A DNA stretch of 51,529 nucleotides from Candidatus Uhrbacteria bacterium. GTDB taxonomy: Bacteria; Patescibacteriota; Patescibacteriia; JACQSD01. The stretch lies in NCBI GenBank assembly GCA_016206165.1, contig JACQSD010000018.1, forward strand, positions 1 through 51,529, in the 5' to 3' direction. Position numbers and translations under genes: made by a program. The notes beneath the pieces are model-generated. The model saw only the letters and a program-made list of their open reading frames with translations, did no database searches and was not told where the DNA came from. Numbering within the stretch: the first letter of the stretch is position 1; the number at the start of each line of letters is the position of its first letter. Of this stretch, positions 4,568 through 38,195 are shown piece by piece.

Positions 4568-6100
4568 ATGAAACCGACAGAGAAACAACAAAAGGCACCA
4601 CCACCAACACCACCCCCTGCACCGCAGCGGAAGATTGAACGTGTGCAAGCAGTGCGGGGGATGAAAGATATTCTTCCACAAGAAGAGCGTTTGTGGACAT
4701 GGATCACGGGTCGTGCACGTGCACTTGCGCACGCATATGGATTTCAATTGATTGAACTCCCTATACTCGAGGCAACATCCTTGTTTGTACGCGCGGTCGG
4801 AAAGGACACGGATATTGTCGAGAAAGAAATGTTTTCATTTGAAGATCAGGGAGGAGATCGCTTAAGTCTTCGGCCAGAACCAACAGCAGGGATGGTCCGT
4901 TCATACATCGAGCATGGGATGGTGAATCAACCACAGCCGGTGCAGCTCTATACGATTGGACCGATGTTTCGTCATGAACGCCCACAAGCGGGACGCCTGC
5001 GACAGTTTTATCAATTCGACTGTGAGGTCTTTGGCGACGCGAGTCCGGTCATCGATGCCCAACTCATCATTCTTGCACATCATTTCTATAAGGAGCTTGG
5101 GCTTGAGACGATCGTCCACATGAATAGCGTCGGATGCCCGACATGCAGGCCCACGTATACGGAAGAGCTTGCGCGCTATTACAAAACACACCGGAAGTCG
5201 TTGTGTGAAGATTGTCAGCGACGCCTGTTAAAAAATCCACTGCGGCTTCTTGATTGTAAAGCAGAGGCGTGCCAACCAATCAAAACAGGAGCCCCACAGA
5301 TCCTCGATCGCCTCTGCGATCTCTGTAAGAATCATTTCATGAAGGTCCTTGAGTATCTCGATGATGCGGCGATTCCATACAGTTTACAGCCAGCGCTCGT
5401 CCGCGGGCTTGATTACTACACAAAAACCGTTTTTGAGTTTTTTTCGCCGATGCCAGACGGAACGCAAGGATTCGCACTTGGTGGTGGGGGCAGATATGAT
5501 GGGCTCGTGGAGTATTTTTCGCAGCGCCAATGTCCCGCTGCAGGGTTTGGCATTGGTCTTGAGCGCATCATGGCGGCCCTTCGTCAGCGCACGATCGATG
5601 CGCCAGCGAGTGAGCGGCCACACGTCTTTCTTGCACAACTTGGGGACGCAGCAAAACGACGCGCACTCCTTCTTTTTGAAGAGTGCCGCAAAGCGAACCT
5701 GCTCGTCCTTGCACAGTTCTCAAAAGATAACTTGAAGGCGCAGCTAGAAATTGCGCGACGCAACCATGTGCGCTACACACTCATTCTTGGTCAGAAAGAA
5801 GTGATGGAAGGTACAATTATTCTTCGTGATATGGATGGAGGAGCGCAAGAAGTAGTGAATGCAGAACGCATTGTTGCTGTCCTCCAAAAGAAAATTGCCG
5901 AAGCACCGATCATCGCTTCGGGAGCGACTGATGATACTCCGCATGATCGTTCGCTATCGTTTAAAGATGATCCAGAACTTGCCGAAGATGAAACCGAAGG
6001 AGATGCATTTGAACAGGTAAGCGACGGGAAGGATACAGTGAATCCGGATTTTGAAGAAAAAGGAGGTGACGACGGTGGAAGTGAAACGGAAACGGAATGA
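4568..6100 (+). CDS. hisS: histidine--tRNA ligase with Pro-rich N-terminal and long acidic C-terminal extensions
   Basis: VRGMKDILP, class II motifs (FRHERPQAGRLRQFYQFD, GGGGRYDGL), and an anticodon-binding domain. The tail reads ...DDPELAEDETEGD...GGDDGGSETETE. Confidence 0.92.
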   Translation: MKPTEKQQKAPPPTPPPAPQRKIERVQAVRGMKDILPQEERLWTWITGRARALAHAYGFQLIELPILEATSLFVRAVGKDTDIVEKEMFSFEDQGGDRLSLRPEPTAGMVRSYIEHGMVNQPQPVQLYTIGPMFRHERPQAGRLRQFYQFDCEVFGDASPVIDAQLIILAHHFYKELGLETIVHMNSVGCPTCRPTYTEELARYYKTHRKSLCEDCQRRLLKNPLRLLDCKAEACQPIKTGAPQILDRLCDLCKNHFMKVLEYLDDAAIPYSLQPALVRGLDYYTKTVFEFFSPMPDGTQGFALGGGGRYDGLVEYFSQRQCPAAGFGIGLERIMAALRQRTIDAPASERPHVFLAQLGDAAKRRALLLFEECRKANLLVLAQFSKDNLKAQLEIARRNHVRYTLILGQKEVMEGTIILRDMDGGAQEVVNAERIVAVLQKKIAEAPIIASGATDDTPHDRSLSFKDDPELAEDETEGDAFEQVSDGKDTVNPDFEEKGGDDGGSETETE

Positions 6101-6299
6101 AAGCTTTGAGAGTTTGTTGCGGCGGTTTAATCGGAGAATGCTCATGAGCGGACGCGCGTTGCAGGCAAAAAAAATTCGTTTTTTTCGACGTCCAAAGAAT
6201 GAAACGAAAAAACGCGCAGGAGCACTCCGACGGGTTGTCTTACAAAAACGAGCAGCATATCTTGAACGTATTGGGAAACTCGACGACATGATGAAGTAA
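6075..6299 (+). CDS. rpsU: 30S ribosomal protein bS21
   Basis: (M)EVKRKRNESFESLLRRFNRRMLMSGRALQAKKIRFF..P is S21-like. GTG at 6075 lies 8 nt after AGGAGGTGA, while the ORF opens at ATG 6051. It overlaps the hisS 3' end by 26-50 nt. Confidence 0.85.
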   Translation: MEVKRKRNESFESLLRRFNRRMLMSGRALQAKKIRFFRRPKNETKKRAGALRRVVLQKRAAYLERIGKLDDMMK

Positions 6300-6300
6300 A

Positions 6301-6368
6301 GACAGTAAAGGCAGTTTGTCAGTCTATCAGCTATCTTTACTGACTTTACTGGTATACTGGCTTACTAT
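6301..6368 (+). repeat. long word-hairpin repeat (GACAGTAAAG / CTTTACTGAC family), putative terminator after rpsU
   Basis: GACAGTAAAGGCAGT...CTTTACTGACTTTACTGG. Purine-rich arm comes first, then the pyrimidine-rich arm. Confidence 0.6.
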
Positions 6369-6380
6369 CAGGTGAGTTCC

Positions 6381-7931
6381 ATGCTTCTCACCAACAAACC
6401 CAATCAGCAAAAAAAACTATCGCGAGCACGACGTGCGGCGCAAATATTGTCGCTGTCTTTTTTTGTGTTCGTTTTTCCCTTCATTGCTTTTGCACAAACA
6501 ACTGGAGGAGGGCGAGGTTTTTTTATTGCAGGAATTATTTTCGGCATCATTGCGCTCATATTGTTTGGGGTTGTTGTATGGGCAATGGTGCAGTATCGGC
6601 GCTATACACCCGATGACCAGCGCAGTACACGAGCGCGCCTCATCCTTCTCGTGAGCGGCGGCGCAGCACTCATCTTTCTTATTCTTGCGCTCGTGTTCCT
6701 CATCATTGGGCGGAGAAAAAGTTCTGAGAGTACGAGTGGTGGGGGTAGAGGATCAACAATCCCAGAGCCGCCACGCCCGCCGCAGCTTCCAACGCGCGTC
6801 ATTGAAAGGCATACACCACGGCGTGATGAGCAAAATGTCGCACGGAATACATCACTCCTTATGACATTTCGTGAAGCAGTCGATCCCGTGAGTGTTCTTG
6901 ATACCAAGGGGACGGCTGACGTTTCCGACGACCGCATTCGTGGGGAAGCAATCACCCTTCGTCCGAAATCCGGCGGAGCTGCACTCGTGTTGCGAGGAAA
7001 ATTGTCAAACGGAAATCGTACTGTGCATGCAATTCCATTATCTCCACTCGGTGATCCTGCAACGCCTCTTACCTATATTGCGCAAATCACCGCATCTGTA
7101 CAAAAAAAGATTGGTGGGAGTGTATTTTCAGAAAACGGGGTTTATACATGGGAGTTTACAACCGGAAAAAGCCTCGATAGCACGCCGCCAACGATCGTGT
7201 CCATGATTCCAAGTGCAAAAGGAACGAGCGCACCGAATAGTGCAGTACACGTTGTCTTTTCAGAACCGATTGACCCGGCAACGCTTGATGTGACGAGCCA
7301 AGGATCCTCTGGGCTCACACTGATGCAGGATAAAAAACCTGTTCACGGGAGCTGGCTGCTCGGGGTCGACGGAAAAACAGCGGAATTTATCCCAACGGAA
7401 GAATGCGGAAAGAATACATGTGGAGCACCGATCCATTGTCTCCCGCGAGGGGCGCAGCTCTCATTCCTTGCAACTCCCGCAACGCTTGGCCCCACTCCAC
7501 CACAAGCGCGGTTTCCATACGATGGAATTGTTGATCTCGCCGGGAATAGCCTTGATGGAGATGGAGATGGAAAAGCAGAAGGGGCGGGAGATGTCTACCG
7601 ATCACTCTTTGCAACAATGAGCGCGATTGATTCTGTGGCGCCGACCATTATTGATGTGCGTCCGACGAGTGGGAGCACGAATGTTCCCGGGGCGACGCCC
7701 GTTGAGATCCTTTTCTCAAAACCAATGCTCACGACATCAATGACACGTGACTCGGTGTTCCTTGAAGGCGTTGAAGGAGAACTGCACTATCGATTTGATG
7801 ATCGCGACGGGCGAACGCGGGTGACCATTGAACACCCCCCGTTTGTTTCTGATCAGCTTGTCGCTCCCATTGTTTCTGGATCAGTCCAAGATCTTTCGCA
7901 AAATTGCTATCAACCGTGCACAGGACCGTAG
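6381..7931 (+). CDS. membrane-anchored surface protein with SbsA/Big_5-type Ig-like domains
   Basis: Two N-terminal hydrophobic helices. Repeated TPPTIVSMIPS...VHVVFSEPIDPATL and APTIIDVRPTSGSTNVPG...EILFSKPM modules. ATG 6381 lies 5 nt after GGTGA; the ORF opens at GTG 6372. Confidence 0.7.
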   Translation: MLLTNKPNQQKKLSRARRAAQILSLSFFVFVFPFIAFAQTTGGGRGFFIAGIIFGIIALILFGVVVWAMVQYRRYTPDDQRSTRARLILLVSGGAALIFLILALVFLIIGRRKSSESTSGGGRGSTIPEPPRPPQLPTRVIERHTPRRDEQNVARNTSLLMTFREAVDPVSVLDTKGTADVSDDRIRGEAITLRPKSGGAALVLRGKLSNGNRTVHAIPLSPLGDPATPLTYIAQITASVQKKIGGSVFSENGVYTWEFTTGKSLDSTPPTIVSMIPSAKGTSAPNSAVHVVFSEPIDPATLDVTSQGSSGLTLMQDKKPVHGSWLLGVDGKTAEFIPTEECGKNTCGAPIHCLPRGAQLSFLATPATLGPTPPQARFPYDGIVDLAGNSLDGDGDGKAEGAGDVYRSLFATMSAIDSVAPTIIDVRPTSGSTNVPGATPVEILFSKPMLTTSMTRDSVFLEGVEGELHYRFDDRDGRTRVTIEHPPFVSDQLVAPIVSGSVQDLSQNCYQPCTGP

Positions 7932-7964: not shown

Positions 7965-10900
7965 ATGTTGATTGCCATTATCACTTGGTCATCACTTGTT
8001 CTTGCGCTCATCGCACTCGTGGGTGTTGTCTTTGGTTTTTTACAAATGCGGAAAGAAGATGCGCTCGTGCACGCGCGAGGGAAGAGCATCCTCATTGTTT
8101 CTGGCGTTACGACACTCCTCTTTTTTGCGCTTTTTGCGGTTGGATTGTATCGCATGAATGCGTCAGAGGGAATCAATCAAAGCACACAAACAGGCACGAG
8201 CCCATTAACGAACACATCACCAGGCCTCACCCCACGAACAGATCGTGATCGCGATCCCGGGAGTACTCCACCAAAGACAACGCAACCAGGAGGAGGAACA
8301 GAAGTGCCGATTGCAAGTCCGGCAGAAGGGGTGGCTGGGAGAACCGTCACGATTATTGGAAAAGGATTTGGGAATGTGCCAGGGAGCGTGCAGTTTGTGG
8401 ATACAAAAGGAAATGAAACACGCGCAGCACTTGTCAATGCAGGTGAGTGCACCCCGACGCCATGGGGGGATACCACAATCCTCATTACTATTCCCGATGT
8501 TGCCCCCGATACCTATACAATCATCGTGCGCCGTGTCGATGGCGGAGCATTGGCACCATTTTCATTTCGTGTGACGAATCTCGGGAACCGAACAAGTATT
8601 TGTCGCGTTGATCCCGAATCAGGCATCCCGAACGCAACGCAGGTGACCATGCTTGGTTCGGAATTAGGAAAAACTCCGGGGAAGGTATACTTTGGCGAGA
8701 CGCTCGCACAATCCATTGTTTCTTGGAGCGAGCGCGCAATTACGGTGCGCGTTCCCATTGGCGCAACCACGGGAACTGTCCGTGTCGTTACCAAAGAGGG
8801 CATTCGTTCGAACGAACTTGCATTTACGATTGGGCAATGCACAGGGACGTCATGTCGGAGTGGCGAATCGTGTTGTGGCGACGGCCTCTGTCGCAAAGAA
8901 GGAACATGTCCCGCATCGGGCGCATGTCGATACCGGTGGTATTTTTCGACTGGCGCAACGATGACGTTGCCATGCGGGGCGAATGGGGCATGTCCATCGG
9001 GTTTTCAATGTGATGCAACAACAAAAGCGTGCGCCCCACTGCGGCGTGCAGGGCCATGTGTGAAAGACACAGAGTGTCCGGCGGGAACATACTGCCAGAA
9101 AGCGAGCGGGCGATGTATTGATGGGACGCCACGTTTGATTGAAGAGCCTGGATGCGTGAACACCGTCCAGAGTCCGACGCCCTATCGCGGACGCATTGAC
9201 GCATGCACGAATGCACGGTTTGGCGCACGGTTTTCTGTTCCGCTCGACGCGAGTACATTGCATGACCATACACTCGAACTCCACCAATGTGGAACCGCCA
9301 TTGATTTTAACGAACAGGCATGCACGGCTCGCATTGCGGGTTCAGTCGTATCGATCCCTGGGCAAGATGGCGTTGTTGGGTTCCTCTATGAACCAGAGGT
9401 GCCGTTGCAACCGGAAACGTGGTACACAATGACCATCAAACAATCGCTCGAGAGCGTTGCACGAATATCGATTGGCGACGATATCACGTGGCGCGCACGA
9501 ACAGGGAAGACTCCATGTACACTTGATCACGTTGAGGTGACGCCATCGCGCGCCATCGTTGTTGGCATTGATCGCGAACAGGCATATCGCGCATTGCCGA
9601 CAGCAAAAAATTGCAACGTGATACCTCACGCGGGGCCATGGGCTTGGGTATCGAAGGATGAGCGTCAAGCATCGCTCGCACCGACGAATGGAGAAGAAGC
9701 GATTGCACGTGCACGCGGAGCGACGACAGGGGATGGTGTTTCGCTCGAAGCAGTGCTTCAGAAGAAAAAAGATACAGGCTTGTTGGTTGTTCGTTTGCTC
9801 GCGCCAAAATTGATTGAATGGTGGCCCTCGTGTGGAAGCGCGTGCAGAAATGCCGAGCTTGGTCTTCGATTCTCCGGGCCAATGCGACTTTCCAGTATCA
9901 ATGAAAAAACAGTTCGGCTCGAGGCGTGCGGGGACGCACAATGTACTCGAGTGACGCCCGTTTCGCTCACTGGATTTTCTGGTGCGGAAGGAGATACTGT
10001 CGTTCGATTTCGATCAACAAAAGGGCTTCTTGCACCTGGTATGACGTATCGCGTGGTCATCATTGCATCGGAAGTGAAAGGACGTGATGGCGTGGCGCTC
10101 GCTGGTATTGAAAGCCGAAGCGGCCAAACAATGACAACAGCGAATGCGCGATATTCTTGGACATTCCGGACACTTGATACACGTGCAGTGTGCAGCGTCG
10201 ATCATGTTGCCGTTGCCCCGGAGCGCGCAACACTCACCGCCATTTTTGCAAAACAGGATTTTTCGGCGATCCCGCGGAGTAAATCCGACGCGTGTGATGT
10301 GCAAGGGCAGCGGTTGATTGCCGATGGGTATGCATGGGCATGGGCGACAAGCGAGGAGCGGGTTGCTGCACTCATTGACGACAAATCGCCAAGTGATGCA
10401 TGGCAACAAGTTGAGGCGCGCGGATCTGGGCAGAGTGCCGTGAGCGCGGAAACTGGAGGGAAACGTGGCATCGGGACTGTTTCGGTTGTTTGTGATGCAA
10501 CTGATGATCGGTCGTGTGGTGCGGACCATGGTGTGGGCATTGATCGTTGTTGTTACCCTCGTCCAAGAATACTCAAACGTCAGCCCGAGGGCGATAAAGC
10601 ATGTCGGAATGGCGTCATTGAAATTCAGTTTGATCAGCCGATGGATAAGGGGACCGTTGAAAAAGGAACAGTCATTGAGCAAGAAGTGGCGGGCACATCA
10701 TGTGCCGCTCCATCACAGCCCAAGAAACCAAACGCCACACCGGGGCCGAACGCGACACCCGCGAAAAAAGTTTTTTGTCCCGTCGCAACGCGGTTGACCA
10801 CAAGTAGTGATGAGCGGCTGTTTACGTTTGCCCCCGCCACGGTGCTTCCGAAAAATGCGGCAATTCGTGTACGTGTTTTTGGCATGGATGCAGATCCAGC

Positions 10901-12326
10901 GAACGTTACTGTCAAGAATCGCGCGGGTGTTGCGATGACGCAAGGAGCGACATGGAATTTCACGACAGGATCGCTCATTTGTCAGATTACCACAGTGCGT
11001 GTGTATCGTGACCCAACACCGACCCCGGTGTTGAGTGATACGTTTCTCTGTTCACGCGGAGATAATTGCGCGGATGATGTGAATTCCGCGCTCCCTGGGA
11101 ACCAGCATCGATTCCGAGTGGCAGCATTCGATCAAGAGGAACATCCAGTGAATGCAACATACGTATGGTCAATAGAAGATCCGCGTACTGCCACGCTGAC
11201 TCCACAAAATCAAGAAGCAGAGGTCACGAGTGGGGAAAACGGAAGGACAGCCCTTGCCGTGCAAGCAACCGCAACGAACGCAGGGGGAGGAAAGGGGAAT
11301 GTGGTGATTCCGATTGATGTGACTGCGTGTGCGAATCCATGGCCTGCGCGGATCGTACAAGGAACAACAACATTGTGGGAACCATTTGCGGATCGAGTAG
11401 GCGCCGGAGCAACAAACTTTTCAACATACTATTGTCGTGATCGTGGAGAGGCTACGCTTGACGACGATTTGCCTGCACTCGCATGGCCGCCTGGCATTGA
11501 AACTGGGTTTGAACAAGATCCAAAGAAAAAAGATCTGATCAAAGGATTCCTTTTCCAGGTTGTTGGTGGCGGCGAACCAGATGCGATTGGCTTTGAGATT
11601 TTCCGAAACCAAGAGAAGAAAGATATTGCGGCATGGTATCGTGCAATATTTAAAAATGACAATCAAAATACTCTTGAACCACTGACCGTGAATGGATATC
11701 CGGGGCTGCGGGATGGGAGAACAGTGTACGTGAATGCATTGAATATTCAAGGATCGGACGTCGTGATGCAGGTGCATCTTCTTTCCTACGGGCTTGGTGC
11801 ATCCGAGGATACGATTGCAATTGCACGTCAGCTCGAACAGAACTGGCGGTTCACCACATCAGTGACCGATGATCGTGATCGGGCTGCGCTCCAACGCGAT
11901 GTGACACGCATGCTCGCGCTCAATGGTATGCGGGGAGCATTGAATAGTCGTGGTGCTCCAAAATTGGAAGCAGGGAGTTTTATTCCAGGGCTTACCTTTT
12001 CCACATGGCCTCTGTCGTGGGGGCGCCTTGGTTCAAGTGCTGGGGCAGCGTTCCCCCGTGATCCCGTGAATCGATTTGAAGGGTGCACGAAACCGTTTGA
12101 TCCTGCAACATGTTGGAACCCGGTGCGCAAGAAGACAGAACCATTGGTCAAACAATTCAAATGTCCGACTGGTGCACTCGCGTATGGATACAAGGTGGAT
12201 CCGGGGAGTCCTCAAGGATATATCCTTGCCACGAATTTTGAATACGATGGCCCGGGGTCCTTCAAGCGTGACCCATCATATCGTTCGCTTGATAGCTTGC
12301 TCGGGAGTGGTGTGTGTACCAAATAA
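7965..12326 (+). CDS. giant (1453 aa) N-terminally anchored surface protein: IPT/TIG domains, Cys-rich module, multiple Ig-like domains
   Basis: TM helix at the N-terminus. Two IPT-like units (GRTVTIIGKGFGNVPGSVQFVD; VTMLGSELGKTPGKVYFG...TVRVPIGATTGTVRVVT). The Cys-rich stretch is CTGTSCRSGESCCGDGLCRKEGTCP...CPAGTYCQKASGRCI. One long uninterrupted ORF. Confidence 0.8.
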   Translation: MLIAIITWSSLVLALIALVGVVFGFLQMRKEDALVHARGKSILIVSGVTTLLFFALFAVGLYRMNASEGINQSTQTGTSPLTNTSPGLTPRTDRDRDPGSTPPKTTQPGGGTEVPIASPAEGVAGRTVTIIGKGFGNVPGSVQFVDTKGNETRAALVNAGECTPTPWGDTTILITIPDVAPDTYTIIVRRVDGGALAPFSFRVTNLGNRTSICRVDPESGIPNATQVTMLGSELGKTPGKVYFGETLAQSIVSWSERAITVRVPIGATTGTVRVVTKEGIRSNELAFTIGQCTGTSCRSGESCCGDGLCRKEGTCPASGACRYRWYFSTGATMTLPCGANGACPSGFQCDATTKACAPLRRAGPCVKDTECPAGTYCQKASGRCIDGTPRLIEEPGCVNTVQSPTPYRGRIDACTNARFGARFSVPLDASTLHDHTLELHQCGTAIDFNEQACTARIAGSVVSIPGQDGVVGFLYEPEVPLQPETWYTMTIKQSLESVARISIGDDITWRARTGKTPCTLDHVEVTPSRAIVVGIDREQAYRALPTAKNCNVIPHAGPWAWVSKDERQASLAPTNGEEAIARARGATTGDGVSLEAVLQKKKDTGLLVVRLLAPKLIEWWPSCGSACRNAELGLRFSGPMRLSSINEKTVRLEACGDAQCTRVTPVSLTGFSGAEGDTVVRFRSTKGLLAPGMTYRVVIIASEVKGRDGVALAGIESRSGQTMTTANARYSWTFRTLDTRAVCSVDHVAVAPERATLTAIFAKQDFSAIPRSKSDACDVQGQRLIADGYAWAWATSEERVAALIDDKSPSDAWQQVEARGSGQSAVSAETGGKRGIGTVSVVCDATDDRSCGADHGVGIDRCCYPRPRILKRQPEGDKACRNGVIEIQFDQPMDKGTVEKGTVIEQEVAGTSCAAPSQPKKPNATPGPNATPAKKVFCPVATRLTTSSDERLFTFAPATVLPKNAAIRVRVFGMDADPANVTVKNRAGVAMTQGATWNFTTGSLICQITTVRVYRDPTPTPVLSDTFLCSRGDNCADDVNSALPGNQHRFRVAAFDQEEHPVNATYVWSIEDPRTATLTPQNQEAEVTSGENGRTALAVQATATNAGGGKGNVVIPIDVTACANPWPARIVQGTTTLWEPFADRVGAGATNFSTYYCRDRGEATLDDDLPALAWPPGIETGFEQDPKKKDLIKGFLFQVVGGGEPDAIGFEIFRNQEKKDIAAWYRAIFKNDNQNTLEPLTVNGYPGLRDGRTVYVNALNIQGSDVVMQVHLLSYGLGASEDTIAIARQLEQNWRFTTSVTDDRDRAALQRDVTRMLALNGMRGALNSRGAPKLEAGSFIPGLTFSTWPLSWGRLGSSAGAAFPRDPVNRFEGCTKPFDPATCWNPVRKKTEPLVKQFKCPTGALAYGYKVDPGSPQGYILATNFEYDGPGSFKRDPSYRSLDSLLGSGVCTK

Positions 12327-22918: not shown

Positions 22919-22946
22919 CATCCGGTGCGATCACGATTTTCCGAAG

Positions 22947-22986
22947 CGACCCAGGGTGAACATACCCCTGGGTCGTATTCTTTTTT
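22947..22986 (+). terminator. intrinsic terminator
   Basis: CGACCCAGGG tgaacatac CCCTGGGTCG followed by TATTCTTTTTT. Confidence 0.8.
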
Positions 22987-23040: not shown

Positions 23041-23078
23041 AAATCCACTTTATGTCCGGTCGGACATAAAGTGGATTT
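23041..23078. repeat. 38-bp palindrome, 18-bp perfect arms, core ATGTCCG-GT-CGGACAT (family copy 1)
   Basis: AAATCCACTTTATGTCCG GT CGGACATAAAGTGGATTT. T-rich on both outer flanks, so it could be a bidirectional terminator or an operator. Confidence 0.9.
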
Positions 23079-23122: not shown

Positions 23123-23152
23123 TTGACATCAAGCACGGCTTTGGTGTAGATT
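23123..23152 (+). promoter_or_regulatory. promoter TTGACA-18-TAGATT in front of the tRNA-like array
   Basis: A second TTGACA sits at 23109-23114. The first tRNA-like gene begins about 17 nt after the -10 box. Confidence 0.45.
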
Positions 23153-23168
23153 CTTTTTGTATAGGAAT

Positions 23169-23260
23169 TAGGGGGTAGCTTAGTGGTAAAGCATGGGAGG
23201 AAATCATGTAGTGCATGCGGGTTCTCCCACAGCGCAGGTTCGATTCCTGCCCCCCTTCCA
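23169..23260 (+). tRNA. tRNA-like gene with canonical D and T arms but a 36-nt element in place of the anticodon arm
   Basis: TAGGGGG TA GCTT AGTGGTA AAGC A [TGGGAG GAAATCATGTAGTGCATGCGGGTT CTCCCA] CAGC GCAGG TTCGATT CCTGC CCCCCT T CCA. No 5-bp stem with a 7-nt loop can be drawn. Confidence 0.55.
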
Positions 23261-23267
23261 AGTACTA

Positions 23268-23342
23268 GTGGTGGTAGCTCAACGGTAGAGCACGCGGCTT
23301 TTCGCCGTGTCGTAGGGCGTTCGACTCGCCTCAACCACTCCA
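23268..23342 (+). tRNA. tRNA-Lys(TTT)-like, non-canonical (C37, G6-A67 mismatch, U73)
   Basis: GTGGTGG TA GCTC AACGGTA GAGC A CGCGG CTTTTCG CCGTG TCGTA GGGCG TTCGACT CGCCT CAACCAC T CCA. Confidence 0.6.
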
Positions 23343-23349
23343 ATACACT

Positions 23350-23423
23350 CCTCCCATAGCTCAGAGTGTTGAGCGCTCGCCTCTTAAGCGAGAGGACGCT
23401 GGAGTGACTTCCAGCTGGGAGGA
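23350..23423 (+). tRNA. tRNA-Lys(CTT)-like, non-canonical elbow (no GG in the D loop, 8-nt T loop without TTC), no encoded CCA
   Basis: CCTCCCA TA GCTC AGAGTGTT GAGC G CTCGC CTCTTAA GCGAG AGGAC GCTGG AGTGACTT CCAGC TGGGAGG A. Confidence 0.6.
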
Positions 23424-34576: not shown

Positions 34577-35469
34577 TGAGTGGAATGCGATGGGTTTCCA
34601 CATGGGCGCGGCAACGAAAAACACACACGATGCTCATCATCGTGGGATGTATGCTCCTCCTCACCCTTGCGACACTTGGGTATGATGGTGTTCGCGTTCT
34701 CCGCGATCGTGGAAAACTCGTGGTGTATAGCCTCGATGTCGGGCAAGGAGATGCGCTCTTCGTTCGGTTCCCGAATGCAACGACGATGCTTATTGATAGC
34801 GGGCCTGATGGGAGCGTCGTTGAGCAGCTCGGGAGCGTCCTTCCATTTTGGGAGCGACACATTGATACGATTGTGCTCACACACCCACAAGCAGATCATG
34901 TCGGTGGATTGCCGTCCGTCTTCGAGCGGTATTCGATTGGTCGCGTGGTTATGACTGGTGTTTTGCATACCACGCCAGAGTATCTTGAGTTGCTCCAACA
35001 AATTCGTGATACTCGTACGCCAACAACGATCGTTGATCACCCGTTTGTGGAAACAGTCGGTTCGGTGCGTCTTGAATATCTGTGGCCACGAACATCAATT
35101 GCAAAGCGCAGTGTTCCGGAGTTGAACAATACGTCGATTATCCTGCGCATGGTCTATGGCGACACATCTTTTTTATTCACCGGAGATGCGGAATCGGTCG
35201 TTGAAGATGCGCTTTTTGCGAGTCGCCAGAAGCTAGAAGCTACCGTGCTCAAGATTGGGCATCATGGGAGTGATACATCCACGAGCCAGGCATTTCTTGA
35301 TGCAGTACACCCCGAGTTCGCGATGATTTCTGTCGGTCGAAAGAATAAATTTGGTCATCCCTCGCGTCGTATTCTCCGTCGTCTCGCCCGCGCTGGTGTC
35401 GAAGTCCATCGCACAGACAAAGAGGGGAGAATTCGGTTCGTGAGCGATGGGACACGCGTAACGCAGTAA
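34549..35469 (+). CDS. comEC: ComEC C-terminal metallo-beta-lactamase domain encoded as a separate overlapping ORF
   Basis: TM helix, then LDVGQGDALFV, THPQADHVGGL, FTGD, GHHGS. The ORF is in a different frame and overlaps the upstream ORF by 28 nt. Confidence 0.85.
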   Translation: MDQEKQSAIVSGMRWVSTWARQRKTHTMLIIVGCMLLLTLATLGYDGVRVLRDRGKLVVYSLDVGQGDALFVRFPNATTMLIDSGPDGSVVEQLGSVLPFWERHIDTIVLTHPQADHVGGLPSVFERYSIGRVVMTGVLHTTPEYLELLQQIRDTRTPTTIVDHPFVETVGSVRLEYLWPRTSIAKRSVPELNNTSIILRMVYGDTSFLFTGDAESVVEDALFASRQKLEATVLKIGHHGSDTSTSQAFLDAVHPEFAMISVGRKNKFGHPSRRILRRLARAGVEVHRTDKEGRIRFVSDGTRVTQ

Positions 35470-35561
35470 CAATCCTTTACAGAAAGAGGAAAGATTGCTA
35501 CTCTCTCCTCGTACTGGTTATCGAACGCACATCACAACAACCCATGGGAGAGGAGATTGTC

Positions 35562-35777
35562 ATGAGTATACGATTCGTGTATGTAGGAAACAGGAAATCG
35601 CGAGGGGCGCTTTCGGATCCGAAGGCTCTACCCGTTGATCAGGCGCAGAAGGCGTCGCGCATCACCGGGGGTTGTTCCTCCACGTTTACTGTCAGCAGTC
35701 TGGACTGTCCGCTTTGCCTCCGGTATCCCGGATTCGAGGAAGACATTGCCCTCGACCTCGATATGGGCTGGTTCTAA
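35562..35777 (+). CDS. hypothetical 71-aa protein (cassette 1, gene 1)
   Basis: GGAGAGGAG lies 7 nt before ATG 35562. No family recognised. A competing antisense 180-aa ORF is Arg-rich. Confidence 0.35.
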   Translation: MSIRFVYVGNRKSRGALSDPKALPVDQAQKASRITGGCSSTFTVSSLDCPLCLRYPGFEEDIALDLDMGWF

Positions 35778-35801
35778 GCCCACAAGGAAAGGAAACGAAA
35801 G

Positions 35802-35990
35802 ATGAAGCCTTCGGATAAGGAAGATGGAAAGGATGCTCCGGAGCATGGACTCCGTGCGGTCGCGCGAGCCCTCAAGGAGATGCCGAGAGATCCCGGTCCT
35901 ATCGAGGAAACGGTGCATGTGTCGGACGGATTCCATACCTTCTACCACGGCCCCGTCAGCGGCTGTCCTTCGCACTTTCTCGATCCATGA
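35802..35990 (+). CDS. hypothetical 62-aa protein (cassette 1, gene 2)
   Basis: AAGGAAAGGAAA precedes ATG 35802. The gene ends 18 nt before the 110-nt 3' module. Confidence 0.3.
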   Translation: MKPSDKEDGKDAPEHGLRAVARALKEMPRDPGPIEETVHVSDGFHTFYHGPVSGCPSHFLDP

Positions 35991-36007
35991 TCGATGAGAC
36001 TCGTCAC

Positions 36008-36117
36008 GAAGAGGCCCGGTTTCTTCGTGCCCCACAACACCCTCGCAACGACGAGGGTCATCGGCCACAGACATCAACCGCCGGCTTCTCATGGAGAGGA
36101 GCCGGCTTTCTTTTTTC
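36008..36117 (+). repeat. ~110-nt 3' module, copy A: conserved hairpin ACCCTCG/CGAGGGT + intrinsic terminator
   Basis: ..CTTCGTGCCCCACAACACCCTCGCAACGACGAGGGTCA..CAACCGCCGGCTTCTCatgGAGAGGAGCCGGCtTTCTTTTTTC. About 80 percent identical to 38084-38195. Confidence 0.8.
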
Positions 36118-36400
36118 ACTTTCAAGAGATAATGGAAAATTCGTAAGGCTGAAAATTGAGTCTTGGGCAATATCGACTAGGGTATAGAGTGATTGTCTAT
36201 ACTGCGGCTATAGTCAAACGTCTCAATGCCATCCTGATCTCAACAATCCACAACCAATACCAGCGGTTTTCTTAGAGATGCTGCAACAAGTCAGAATAAC
36301 AACCTCGTAAAACAGCCTTACAGATTTACCATTAGACCCACTTCAACATCATTGTAGCTACAAAGTATACACTGCCCATACACTGCTCAATAGTGAGAAA

Positions 36401-36438
36401 AACGAAAAAACACTTTATGTCCGGTCGGACATAAAGTG
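36401..36438 (-). terminator. palindrome family copy 2 (CACTTTATGTCCG GT CGGACATAAAGTG) followed by TTTTTTCGTT on the minus strand: intrinsic terminator of the regulator gene
   Basis: 13-bp perfect arms at 36411-36438. The minus-strand U-tract comes from 36401-36410. Confidence 0.7.
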
Positions 36439-36487
36439 AAAATGATGCATTTGTCATCAGTACAATAGTGGAAGAGTTTTTTGGTGT

Positions 36488-37054
36488 TTATTGCATCGAT
36501 ACATTGTGTGCGCGGAAGACGCGCACCCAGCGTTCACTTTTTGTATCTCTGATAAACTCTCGCATTGCGTCGAGGACGTCGCATCCGTGCATCCAGACAC
36601 TCTTTTGGAGTTGCGTAAATTTGCACTGTTTCAGGAAGAGACGAAATTGACGCCGTACGCGCCGCTCCCGTTCTGGAACATCAAAGATAACAATGATACA
36701 TTCATTGCTCATGCACGCCGGTGCGGTATGCATGCGCTCCTTTAGCACGAGATGTTTTCCTTTCTCGGTGAGGGCAATATAGACACGCTTCCCCACACGT
36801 CGCTCCTCAATCCACCGTCGCTCTTTTAGTTTTTCGAGGAGCATTTTTTGATACCGTTGTTCGTCGTGAGCCCAGAATTCCCGGACGCGGTCGATATCAC
36901 CGTGGGTAAGTATTTTCCTGTCTCTTGGTGAGAGGAGTGCAAGGTTGACATCAACAAAGTTGACGAGCCCGCGGTGCATACATCTCGCGAGTGCCACGAG
37001 GAATTGCTTTGCTATCGATGGAGTCCTTTTTTTCTGTGGAGAATGGTTTTTCAT
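36488..37054 (-). CDS. winged-helix + Cas2-like/PaaX-like ferredoxin-fold domain transcriptional regulator
   Basis: wHTH LLEKLKERRWIEERRVGKRVYIALTEKGKHLV. The C-terminal CIIVIFDVPERERRVRRQFRLFLKQCKFTQLQKSVWMH..ERWVRVFRA has a beta-alpha-beta pattern as in Cas2/PaaX. Start set at MKNHSPQ (37054), since the ORF extension crosses the palindrome. Confidence 0.6.
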   Translation of the reverse strand: MKNHSPQKKRTPSIAKQFLVALARCMHRGLVNFVDVNLALLSPRDRKILTHGDIDRVREFWAHDEQRYQKMLLEKLKERRWIEERRVGKRVYIALTEKGKHLVLKERMHTAPACMSNECIIVIFDVPERERRVRRQFRLFLKQCKFTQLQKSVWMHGCDVLDAMREFIRDTKSERWVRVFRAHNVSMQ

Positions 37055-37068
37055 ATTATTTTCAAAAC

Positions 37069-37084
37069 ATGTCCGGTCGGACAT
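37069..37084. promoter_or_regulatory. palindrome family copy 3 (core only, ATGTCCG GT CGGACAT), 14 nt upstream of the regulator start codon: candidate operator
   Basis: Lies between a TTTACA/TACTAT-like promoter and ATG 37054 on the minus strand. Confidence 0.45.
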
Positions 37085-37250
37085 AAAATGATTATTCGTA
37101 TAGTATACATGAATCGTGGATGTAAATCTATCTCTTCGTTTTGGTGCCTCGTTCCCTGTATCGTTTATTGCTAAGAAGAACAAGGTTTGTTAGTATTGTG
37201 TTGTACTAGTCATTGAATGTACCTTCAATAACTCGTCGGAGGATAAGACA

Positions 37251-37661
37251 ATGTCGCCAAAAACGCGTAACGCGATTGGTTGGATGGTTCTCGGTGCCAT
37301 TGCGATCACGGGGATTATCTACTGCACATGGGGATCGCCGTACAGCACTACACCGTGGCTTCGGGTCGCCTTCAGTATGCTTATTATCTATGGAGTCACC
37401 TACGGCATCGCCATGAACGTCTCGTTTCGTCACACACTCGTAAAGTGCATTCCTATGGCAATATTCCTCATGTGCTATGCGGCGTGGTGGATGGTCGAGG
37501 AGGGAAAAGCGACGATACCACAACTTGCTATCGTCCTCGGCGGACTCGTTATCGTGTGTGCGATCGGCGGTCTTGCACTCTACTTTTTCTTCGAGTGGCT
37601 CGATCGCTACTCGTACGGCCTCACCGGTAACCAACGGAAACGGAAAGGGAAACCGTCATGA
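37251..37661 (+). CDS. hypothetical 4-TM membrane protein (cassette 2, gene 1)
   Basis: GGAGGA lies 7 nt before the ATG. Strongly hydrophobic helices and a basic tail (QRKRKGKPS). Confidence 0.6.
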   Translation: MSPKTRNAIGWMVLGAIAITGIIYCTWGSPYSTTPWLRVAFSMLIIYGVTYGIAMNVSFRHTLVKCIPMAIFLMCYAAWWMVEEGKATIPQLAIVLGGLVIVCAIGGLALYFFFEWLDRYSYGLTGNQRKRKGKPS

Positions 37662-38086
37662 CGAACGAACAGAAAGTCCCGTCACGCCGCTTCGAGATAT
37701 TCGCGATGATTTGCGGATTCATCGTTGTCGGTATCGTGATCGGTATACCACTCTTCGAGTACATCCTTAGTGGTACGTTGGATCCGCGAGGCCTCTCCGT
37801 CGTGCTCTTGTATAGCGCGGCGACCGCCATCATCGGTGCATGTATCATCGTTTTTGCAAACGAAGTCTTGTGGAAACGTTACCCACGGGCACCGAAGTAT
37901 GCCGCCGTCTTCTGCGGCGTCACTTTCATCAGCGCACTTCCCGTCAAGGCGCACTTCGAACCCAACGCCCCTATTACGTTCGTAACGCTAGGGTATGCGG
38001 CGATAGTCGGGATCGCGTGTTGTATTCTCTTCGCCGTATTGAGCGCGATTTTCCGCCGCACTCGATCCGCATCGCGTAGTCACTAA
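37658..38086 (+). CDS. hypothetical 4-TM membrane protein (cassette 2, gene 2)
   Basis: ATGA start/stop overlap with the upstream gene. Hydrophobic helices. The stop lies inside copy B of the 3' module. Confidence 0.6.
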   Translation: MTNEQKVPSRRFEIFAMICGFIVVGIVIGIPLFEYILSGTLDPRGLSVVLLYSAATAIIGACIIVFANEVLWKRYPRAPKYAAVFCGVTFISALPVKAHFEPNAPITFVTLGYAAIVGIACCILFAVLSAIFRRTRSASRSH

Positions 38087-38195
38087 GAGGTCTGGCTTCT
38101 TCGTGCCCTACAACACCCTTCGCAATGACGAGGGTCACGAGTACGTAAACTTCAACCGCCGGCTTCTCGAAGAGAGGAGCCGGCATTCTTTTTTC
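38084..38195 (+). repeat. ~110-nt 3' module, copy B (hairpin + intrinsic terminator)
   Basis: ..CTTCGTGCCCTACAACACCCTTCGCAATGACGAGGGTCA..CAACCGCCGGCTTCTCgaaGAGAGGAGCCGGCaTTCTTTTTTC. Confidence 0.8.

Follow-up and report, generated by a model that had tools for sequence, protein, structure and literature searches.

A PaaX-type regulator gene bracketed by a palindrome, its probable operator, in a Candidatus Uhrbacteria genome

PaaX, an autorepressed winged-helix repressor, acts as a dimer, recognises inverted repeats and blocks its own promoter sterically, and the middle part of the protein is a dimerisation motif (PMC9493321). TTHA0973 is a TetR-type PaaR and not a PaaX. In the REP/RAYT systems (PMC2817692, PMC3116915), a gene is flanked by a lineage-private palindrome, several such gene/palindrome pairs occur per genome, extra copies of the palindrome lie in intergenic DNA, mostly at 3' ends of genes, and the stems covary. 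The locus described here resembles both. It lies in a stretch of 51,529 nucleotides from a Candidatus Uhrbacteria bacterium (GenBank assembly GCA_016206165.1, contig JACQSD010000018.1, forward strand), referred to below as the window, which is contig C90 of a genome of 836 kb in 92 contigs (83% complete, 49.5% G+C). Two copies of a palindrome bracket a gene in the window, P0001, whose product combines a winged helix with a Cas2-like domain. On balance, the palindrome appears to be the cognate DNA site of P0001, and P0001 to regulate itself through it. The best reading of P0001 is that of a "mini-PaaX", a PaaX-type repressor with its own operator, bracketed by that operator, the site having been copied around the genome. 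No paper containing both "Patescibacteria" and "PaaX", and none on palindrome-bracketed PaaX-like genes, was found in the literature searched.

Palindromes beside PaaX_M genes

The gene and the palindrome copies of the window are as follows.

36411 to 36438: long palindrome copy with 13-bp arms, 50 nt past the regulator stop codon (36488)
36488 to 37054, minus strand: P0001, a winged helix plus Cas2-like protein, with matches to the Pfam families PaaX_M, CRISPR_Cas2 and DUF6293_C
37069 to 37084: short palindrome copy with 7-bp arms around GT, 14 nt 5' of the regulator ATG (37054), in the divergent promoter region
23041 to 23078: long solo palindrome copy with 18-bp arms, T-rich on both sides, between the terminator of the upstream gene and the promoter of a tRNA look-alike operon

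The coordinates and distances that an earlier, sequence-only reading had given for the three copies were all correct when the sequence was re-read. The 16-mer core ATGTCCGGTCGGACAT is present exactly at 23052, 36417 and 37069, always with a non-palindromic GT at its centre; its chance expectation is 0.04 per window, and the observed count was reached in none of 100 dinucleotide-preserving shuffles. As had been claimed, CACTTTATGTCCGGTCGGACATAAAGTG is identical in the two long copies (23041 and 36411). The whole genome contains six exact copies of the core, the three outside the window lying at C19:7440, C19:10060 (where the centre is inverted and reads AC) and C23:2448, and no credible degraded relative was found at one to three mismatches anywhere in the 836 kb. 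The long form, an A-tract followed by CACTTTATGTCCGGTCGGACATAAAGTG, occurs at C90:36411, C19:7434 and C19:10054, and the long-form copy at C90:23041 has five extra paired bases. The short form, ATTTTCAAAAC followed by the core and AAA, occurs at C90:37057-37087 and C23:2436-2466. Each bracket copy in the window has a solo twin with which it shares non-palindromic flank: 36 nt (A-tract and palindrome) are common to the 36411 copy and C19:7428-7463, and the two short-form copies are identical over 31 nt.

Bracketing is a property of all three PaaX_M genes of this genome, on C90, C5 and C27, each of which has the same private palindrome at its two ends. The palindrome families, of four to six copies apiece, emerged from a census of repeats in the genome. 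The palindrome GTCTTTTGATCCGATCGGATCAAAAGAC (palC5) stands 69 nt ahead of C5:19657-20226, which encodes a paralogue 34% identical to P0001, and again 3 nt behind it. The palindrome GGATTTATACACAATGCGGCCGCATTGTGTATAAATCC (palC27) stands 22 nt ahead of C27:4307-5116 and 118 nt behind it, and the 269-residue product of that gene retains a PaaX_C match (1.6e-6). The background rate of bracketing is 17 in 598 open reading frames (ORFs), which gives (0.028)^3 = 2e-5 for three out of three. In other genomes of the class, sharing between flanks, taken as at least three 10-mers common to both 200-nt flanks, is seen for 17 of the 26 PaaX_M homologues with sufficient flank and for 2 of 33 neighbouring genes (Fisher p = 1.2e-6). 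The palindromes that flank these homologues are 28-54 bp long and distinct at every locus, and they lie 12-91 nt 5' of the start and 0-120 nt 3' of the stop. The closest homologue in the databases, P0002 (41% identity), also has a bracket, formed by a different palindrome, GGGGAAAAGTATGCGATCGCGTACTTTTCCCC. PaaX_M genes of about 175-215 residues occur at 1-11 per genome in 33 of 121 genomes of the class, and the matches of the family profile, clustered at 50% identity, come to 6,369 representatives, 4,905 of them with E <= 1e-10, almost all being 160-210 residues long.

The palindrome of the window also recurs, with its inner sequence conserved, beside PaaX_M genes of distant lineages. The inner 22-mer TTTATGTCCGNNCGGACATAAA, for which about one match would be expected by chance in the genome collection, is found at 14 loci in GTDB species-representative genomes (Kerfeldbacteria, Saccharibacteria, Parcubacteria and others among them) and on 31 metagenome contigs, nearly all from Patescibacteria. 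Nine of these genomes, selected for having the core, were searched for both the 16-mer core and PaaX_M. They have 1-8 core copies each, and in eight of the nine exactly one of the 1-6 PaaX_M paralogues directly adjoins a core copy, so that the co-occurrence of regulator family and palindrome on which the sequence-only reading had proposed a check is positive. In four of the nine (G122, G124, G126 and G121, in the last with a near-exact second copy) the PaaX_M gene is bracketed by two cores. Upstream copies at orthologues are also "half" sites, of the form ...ATGTCCGNNCGGACAT-TTTT. A first search for the 16-mer in 60 relatives gave two matches against two control matches, which is chance level by count; one of the two, in G013, abuts a PaaX_M gene and the other, in G002, does not.

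P0001 itself is predicted to be a truncated PaaX-type protein, with a winged helix and a Cas2-like domain but without the C-terminal ligand-binding domain. The Pfam scan places PaaX_M (PF20803) at residues 121-186 with E 7.5e-14 and 52 bits against a cut-off of 24 (55 bits in the whole-genome scan), together with CRISPR_Cas2 (1e-5) and the DUF6293_C winged helix (8e-7); it finds no match to PaaX_N or to PaaX_C (PF08223), and the protein ends at residue 188. Of the more specific models, TIGR01573 (Cas2) scores 31.3 bits against a cut-off of 24.5 over residues 120-169, the PADLOC Cas2 model reaches 5e-8, and TIGR02277, the PaaX equivalog, scores 20.2 bits against a cut-off of 264.55. The AF2 model (pLDDT 83.6) has helices at 54-64 and 66-78, followed by a beta hairpin at 82-95. 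The top Foldseek match of this model is PaaX of E. coli, 8a39 (E 5.5e-5, 185 aligned columns), and Cas2 chains superpose on the C-terminal domain with a root-mean-square deviation of 2.3-2.6 over about 70 residues. A hidden Markov model search against the PDB returns the AspA winged helix (6e-4) and PaaX for residues 56-112, and phmmer finds no PDB match for the Cas2-like domain. The start at 37054 is consistent with the N-termini of homologues. An Asp at the end of strand beta-1 (D125, in FD[IV]PE) is invariant in the family and would correspond in position to the catalytic Asp of Cas2. An annotation of P0001 as "Cas2" would nevertheless be wrong.

A probable site of self-repression

In the proposed mechanism, a dimer of P0001 would read the inner 20-22 bp, TTTATGTCCG-NN-CGGACATAAA, as two 10-bp half-sites about one helical turn apart; this conserved length would be the footprint expected for a winged-helix dimer. 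The copy at 37069 lies between the likely -10 box of the regulator and its ATG, the extended -10 candidate read from the sequence being TGTATACT, and also in the spacer of a divergent promoter-like element. By binding to this copy, P0001 would repress its own gene and possibly the divergent membrane-protein pair too.

37061 to 37089, plus strand: promoter-like element TTCAAA-17-TAAAAT (9/12 consensus matches) with the core exactly in its spacer, facing 37251-38086
37251 to 38086, plus strand: two overlapping small membrane-protein genes (136 and 142 aa, from ORF calls), divergent from the regulator

The divergent pair is a candidate target of local repression on account of this layout. The best Pfam matches of its proteins, DUF6622 (1.7e-4) and MFS_1 (1.3e-3), are both below the cut-off, and the neighbours of the P0001 gene are ComEC-MBL, small membrane proteins and Ndk. 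In three relatives that have the same core (L055, L059 and L049), the -35 box of a good promoter match that faces the regulator begins 11-23 nt from the palindrome centre. The copy at 36411 would close the bracket at the 3' end, and in this genome it is also shaped like an intrinsic terminator of the gene. The other four copies (23041, the two on C19 and the one on C23) would be dispersed duplicates of the two bracket copies, with which they share flanking bases; lying mostly at 3' ends of genes, they may act as protein-bound hairpin terminators or insulators, or have no effect.

Ordinary repressors of this genome have the same habit of bracketing, since an ArsR-type winged-helix gene of 100 aa (C32:17650-17952, minus strand) is likewise flanked by its own five-copy palindrome, CATTCTAATGTTCTTGAGAACATTAGAATG, with one copy preceding its start (17965) and another lying where the following gene begins (17651). 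The remaining three copies are on C22, C48 and C79, and the CATTCTAATGTTCTTGAGAACATTAGAATG sites resemble a small conventional regulon.

Several findings weigh against self-repression through a simple operator. The promoter-like element is of a kind found at background frequency, with six consensus matches against 4.5 expected in shuffles of 3.5 kb. The arms pose a further difficulty. When 36 distinct copies are aligned, each of the four Watson-Crick pairs turns up at positions 11-14 counted from the centre, beyond the 22-mer that the search held constant, and 33-35 of the 36 copies are paired there. Pairing falls to chance at about 19-24 nt from the centre (79% paired, against 29-43% in slid controls), and G-U pairs make up 7 of about 244 paired cells in columns 7-14. 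Protein contact cannot account for such covariation of the outer arms, and palindromes of this length and perfection go far beyond what a dimer operator requires. Self-complementarity itself seems to be kept on both strands, either by selection for a hairpin or cruciform or by a templated arm-to-arm process.

The centre and the placement of the copies point in the same direction. Within most genomes the central dinucleotide is uniform, and between genomes it varies: GT in all six copies here, GC in G121, G122 and G127, and AT in G125 and G126, with G124, where CC/GG and GC are both present, as the exception. A uniform centre within a genome, together with shared non-palindromic flanks, indicates copy-and-paste and not independent operators, and the copies are apparently recent duplicates. 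A plain operator model explains neither the covariation of the outer arms nor the uniformity of the centre. Each of the 11 solo copies of the three families in this genome adjoins at least one 3' end; four are flanked by convergent genes, and divergent promoter regions contain none.

Nor does the site simply follow the protein. On a tree of 26 paralogues from the core-bearing genomes, the proteins adjacent to the core are scattered, the starred branches forcing at least four changes, and a single clade of core-adjacent proteins is refuted, with nine changes for nine rows. Fine specificity thus does not simply track the protein tree and seems to switch often within a restricted repertoire. A coarser class, the palindromes with a TCC...GGA core, clusters on the tree with three changes, a result matched in 3 of 500 shuffles, the class labels having been given after the data were seen and the genomes chosen for the core.

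The sequence-only reading had extended the operator to a regulon that tied P0001 to an array of tRNA-like genes beside the 23041 copy. Its link between palindrome and regulator has held (three of three genes in this genome, 17/26 against 2/33 elsewhere, eight of nine core-bearing genomes), and the array has dropped out.

23123 to 23423, plus strand: promoter TTGACA-18-TAGATT and three tRNA-like genes (23169-23259, 23268-23342 and 23350-23423)

The 23041 copy is 45 nt upstream of the TTGACA at 23123 and about 55 nt past the canonical terminator of the upstream gene (about 22939-22985). Its centre, at 23059, is 88 nt before the -10 hexamer and about 100 nt upstream of the predicted start, off the promoter. 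At none of 34 other loci scanned (31 loci with the same inner palindrome in other genomes and three solo-copy loci of this genome) is there a tRNA gene less than 3 kb from the palindrome, and a conserved link between palindrome and tRNA genes is rejected on this count. Together with the preference of solo copies for 3' ends, including the four between convergent genes, this leaves the regulon unsupported, and the tie between regulator and tRNA-like genes seems to reflect no more than the chance landing place of one copy. A tempting operon link is thereby removed from the window. The centre at C19:10067 is also exactly 88 nt before the -10 of a strong consensus promoter, TTGACA-17-TAGGAT; no homology is detectable between the two 88-nt intervals, and the agreement, with two cases, may be design or coincidence.

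Other explanations of the palindromes

Besides self-repression by P0001, the explanation that survives best, although unlikely, is that palindrome and gene form a self-propagating cassette. The winged-helix and Cas2-fold protein would bind the palindrome and nick or cut it near the dyad by means of a Cas2-type acidic site; it would maintain, lengthen (by arm-to-arm templated repair) and spread the copies, and solo copies would be non-autonomous offspring. This would account for outer arms that covary by Watson-Crick pairs only, out to 14-25 bp and differently in every copy, for a centre mostly uniform within a genome and variable between genomes, and for the flanks that solo twins share (36 nt and 31 nt here, and a duplicated flank of about 200 nt in another genome, at L045/L049). 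It also fits solo copies that lie, as REPs do, at 3' ends or between convergent genes, the lack of degraded copies in the genome, and the invariant D125 at the presumed position of the Cas2 catalytic Asp. The gene is missing from the syntenic MBL-to-Ndk interval of the sister genus (G002), but that interval differs wholesale and is hence little informative. Against a cassette, the copy numbers are tiny (1-8 per genome), and neither target-site duplications nor empty-site pairs nor excision junctions came to light. In PaaX, the literature describes the homologous domain as a motif for dimerisation rather than as a nuclease (PMC9493321). The two bracket copies have their asymmetric centres in direct orientation in the window but inverted in L049, with no directional recombination logic apparent, and the genome's own Y1 transposases and abundant other repeats could explain some background mobility. 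The C23 copy is not supported as the relic of a deleted cassette, its homology ending at 31-33 shared nt.

Distinctly doubtful is the fuller form of this idea, in which the Cas2-fold protein is the active enzyme of a novel type of palindrome-associated element; it would recognise the inner 20-22 bp, break the DNA at or near the dyad by means of the Cas2-type acidic site, keep the palindromes perfect, extend their arms and seed copies at 3' ends. The equally doubtful route would run through hairpin or cruciform intermediates and arm-to-arm templated repair, extending into arbitrary flank.

An element acting at the RNA level is improbable. Hairpins in the 5' leader and at the 3' end of the regulator transcript and of neighbouring transcripts would be bound by the protein through its Cas2 fold, which is RRM-like, and binding would control stability, termination or translation. 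In its favour, the likely transcript includes both bracket copies or has them at its edge (14 nt separate the core from the ATG, and 50 nt the stop from the long copy), the stems covary, the long copies here have U-tracts, and the hairpins are strong, with folds of -17 to -28 kcal/mol (z -4.5 to -8). The hairpin of the short copy at 37069 reaches only -10.6 kcal/mol (z = -2.0). Against it, selection acting on the structure of one RNA strand would admit the G-U pairs that are almost absent (7 of about 244), and the symmetry of the palindromes holds for both strands. Several solo copies have no obviously useful transcript orientation, for example the U-tract at C19:10054, and winged helices of this type (PaaX, AspA, PadR-like) bind duplex DNA. 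No known RNA family (Rfam) was found in 35400-37300 or around the solo copies.

Plain bidirectional intrinsic terminators, or REP-like hairpins unrelated to the neighbouring protein, are very improbable as a general explanation. The sequence-only reading had offered terminators as its second reading, and a terminator-like make-up holds as a local property of the long copies in this genome, with their U-tracts and stable folds, but not as the property that defines the family. On the minus strand the 36411 copy forms 12 pairs with a loop of 4, followed by the T-tail TTTTTTCGTT (-17.2 kcal/mol, z = -6.4), and it is the sole terminator-like structure 3' of the regulator gene; the 23041 copy folds with -28.2 and -28.6 kcal/mol on its two strands. 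The terminator scan calls both, at 36438-36411 (minus strand) and at 23041-23078 (both strands). All four long copies have at least five T in the next eight bases on at least one side and fold with -17 to -28 kcal/mol, and terminator hairpins are duplicated elsewhere in this genome (36080 and 38158 of the window; the flanks of C63:5933-6484). The C19:7434 copy is placed to terminate a DUF5674 operon, and the U-tract at C19:10054 faces no upstream gene. Terminators leave unexplained the private palindrome on both sides of every PaaX_M paralogue and the co-occurrence of core and paralogue in eight of nine genomes. Of the 35 same-core copies in other genomes, just 5 have a U-tract (p = 0.0015 for the difference from this genome), no U-tracts occur in the palC5 and palC27 families here, and the 23041 copy comes only about 55 nt after a canonical terminator. 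Termination would be a local add-on, which arises because the unit copied here includes the A/T-tract (the 36-nt identity). A pure terminator element had been pictured as many copies at 3' ends with no link to the regulator; the outcome is mixed, since placement at 3' ends is indeed seen and the link to the regulator family is firm.

A serine-recombinase site of hix/res type (12-13 + 2 + 12-13 bp), suggested by the 13 + 2 + 13 layout with its asymmetric GT and by two inverted copies 2.6 kb apart on C19, is rejected by the absence of a PF00239 match in the genome, by bracket centres that are direct in the window and inverted in L049, and by symmetric AT or GC centres in most other genomes. A RAYT-dependent REP is likewise rejected, the flanked gene not being HUH, P0001 having no Y1_Tnp match and the Y1 transposases lying elsewhere, as is a relation to CRISPR, there being no PF01867 (cas1) match in the 83%-complete genome and no regularly spaced CRISPR-like array among the repeat families of its census.

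Surroundings and comparison with known systems

Two direct copies of a 3' module, at 36003-36118 and 38079-38195 of the window, are about 84% identical over 116-118 nt and end in a terminator, GCCGGCTTCTC...GAGGAGCCGGC and a T-tract. They enclose a 2-kb block made up of 290 nt without ORFs, the long palindrome, the regulator, the short palindrome and the two membrane-protein genes. No third copy of the module exists in the genome, and the enclosed block could be one inserted or duplicated unit. To the left, the window from 35470 to 36410 (about 0.95 kb) has only small plus-strand ORFs (77 and 62 aa) up to the terminator at 36080, followed by the 290 ORF-less nt, which have no Rfam match.

Further palindromes accompany the dispersed copies. 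A variant, TGTCCCGGTCGGGACA, at C23:2419-2434, lies 12 nt from the short core copy and has one extra C:G pair per arm relative to the core, a paired insertion that keeps self-complementarity and alters the spacing of the half-sites. A second family, GCTCTATATTTTGTTGCGATAGCAACATTTTATAGAGC, has six copies (C19:7385-7422, 10004-10041 and 11906-11943; C23:2347-2384; C48:19952-19989; C60:10754-10791). On C19 it is part of a repeat of about 110 nt (terminator, 60 nt, GCTCTATATTTTGTTGCGATAGCAACATTTTATAGAGC, A-tract) that twice ends in a long core copy, and on C23 it lies 70 nt from the short core copy; no gene bracketed by this family was found in the genome. At C23:5816-5843, a palindrome of C5 type with compensatory outer changes (GACTTTTGATCCGATCGGATCAAAAGTC) falls within a long open frame (5566-6816, plus strand), and either it is translated or the true start of that gene is further downstream.

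Patescibacteria, which are ultra-small (CPR) bacteria, have very few recognisable regulators, and mini-PaaX proteins would be among their main DNA-binding families. With a site beside each member, the family amounts to a ready collection of natural protein/site pairs from which a recognition code could be learned, and the automatic labels "Cas2" and "PaaX" are corrected. The long perfect palindromes, covarying arms, uniform centres and dispersed twins leave room for a DNA-processing role of the Cas2 fold, which, if true, would be relevant to how the CRISPR adaptation module arose. Were the protein such an enzyme, the Cas2 fold would be a sequence-directed DNA-processing enzyme outside CRISPR, in thousands of genes of Patescibacteria.

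Each of the known systems shares part of this arrangement. Bidirectional intrinsic terminators resemble the long copies, which consist of an A-tract, a GC-containing stem and a T-tract and form stable RNA hairpins, but here distant lineages have kept the same inner sequence, which is linked to a single gene family, and most relatives are without U-tracts. Cas2 of CRISPR-Cas systems is matched by P0001 in sequence and fold, but in P0001 it is fused to a winged helix, and neither cas1 nor an array accompanies it.

REP/RAYT systems are alike in the flanked gene, the private palindromes, the several pairs per genome, the intergenic copies near 3' ends and the covarying stems. Their flanked gene, however, is an HUH Y1 transposase, whereas here it encodes a winged-helix and Cas2-like protein. 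REPs usually exceed 100 copies per genome (PMC2817692), whereas the palindrome has six copies here and 1-8 in nine other genomes; the GTAG/CGTC head of REPs (PMC3733652) is not seen in it by eye. This genome does contain three Y1 transposase genes of IS200/RAYT type (C58:6842-7153, C13:13831-14052 and C78:17599-17820) and repeat families of 72, 49 and 48 regions. The flanks of the C58 gene share a 12-mer of one abundant repeat family, so that the genome may harbour a true REP/RAYT pair in addition to its mini-PaaX systems.

PaaX, the repressor of E. coli and Pseudomonas that responds to phenylacetyl-CoA (PDB 8a39, 3l09), has the same order of domains as P0001, a winged helix followed by a Cas2-like middle domain. 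In PaaX an inducer-binding C-terminal part (PaaX_C) follows, whereas P0001 stops where its Cas2-like domain ends. Unlike the PaaX operator, TGATTC-N27-GAATCA, the palindrome here is continuous and near-perfect over 28-38 bp. P0001 further differs from PaaX in having no paa genes nearby, in the palindromic bracket around its gene and in the dispersal of additional copies of the palindrome. The mini-PaaX family, finally, differs in number, with up to 11 paralogues per 1-Mb genome.

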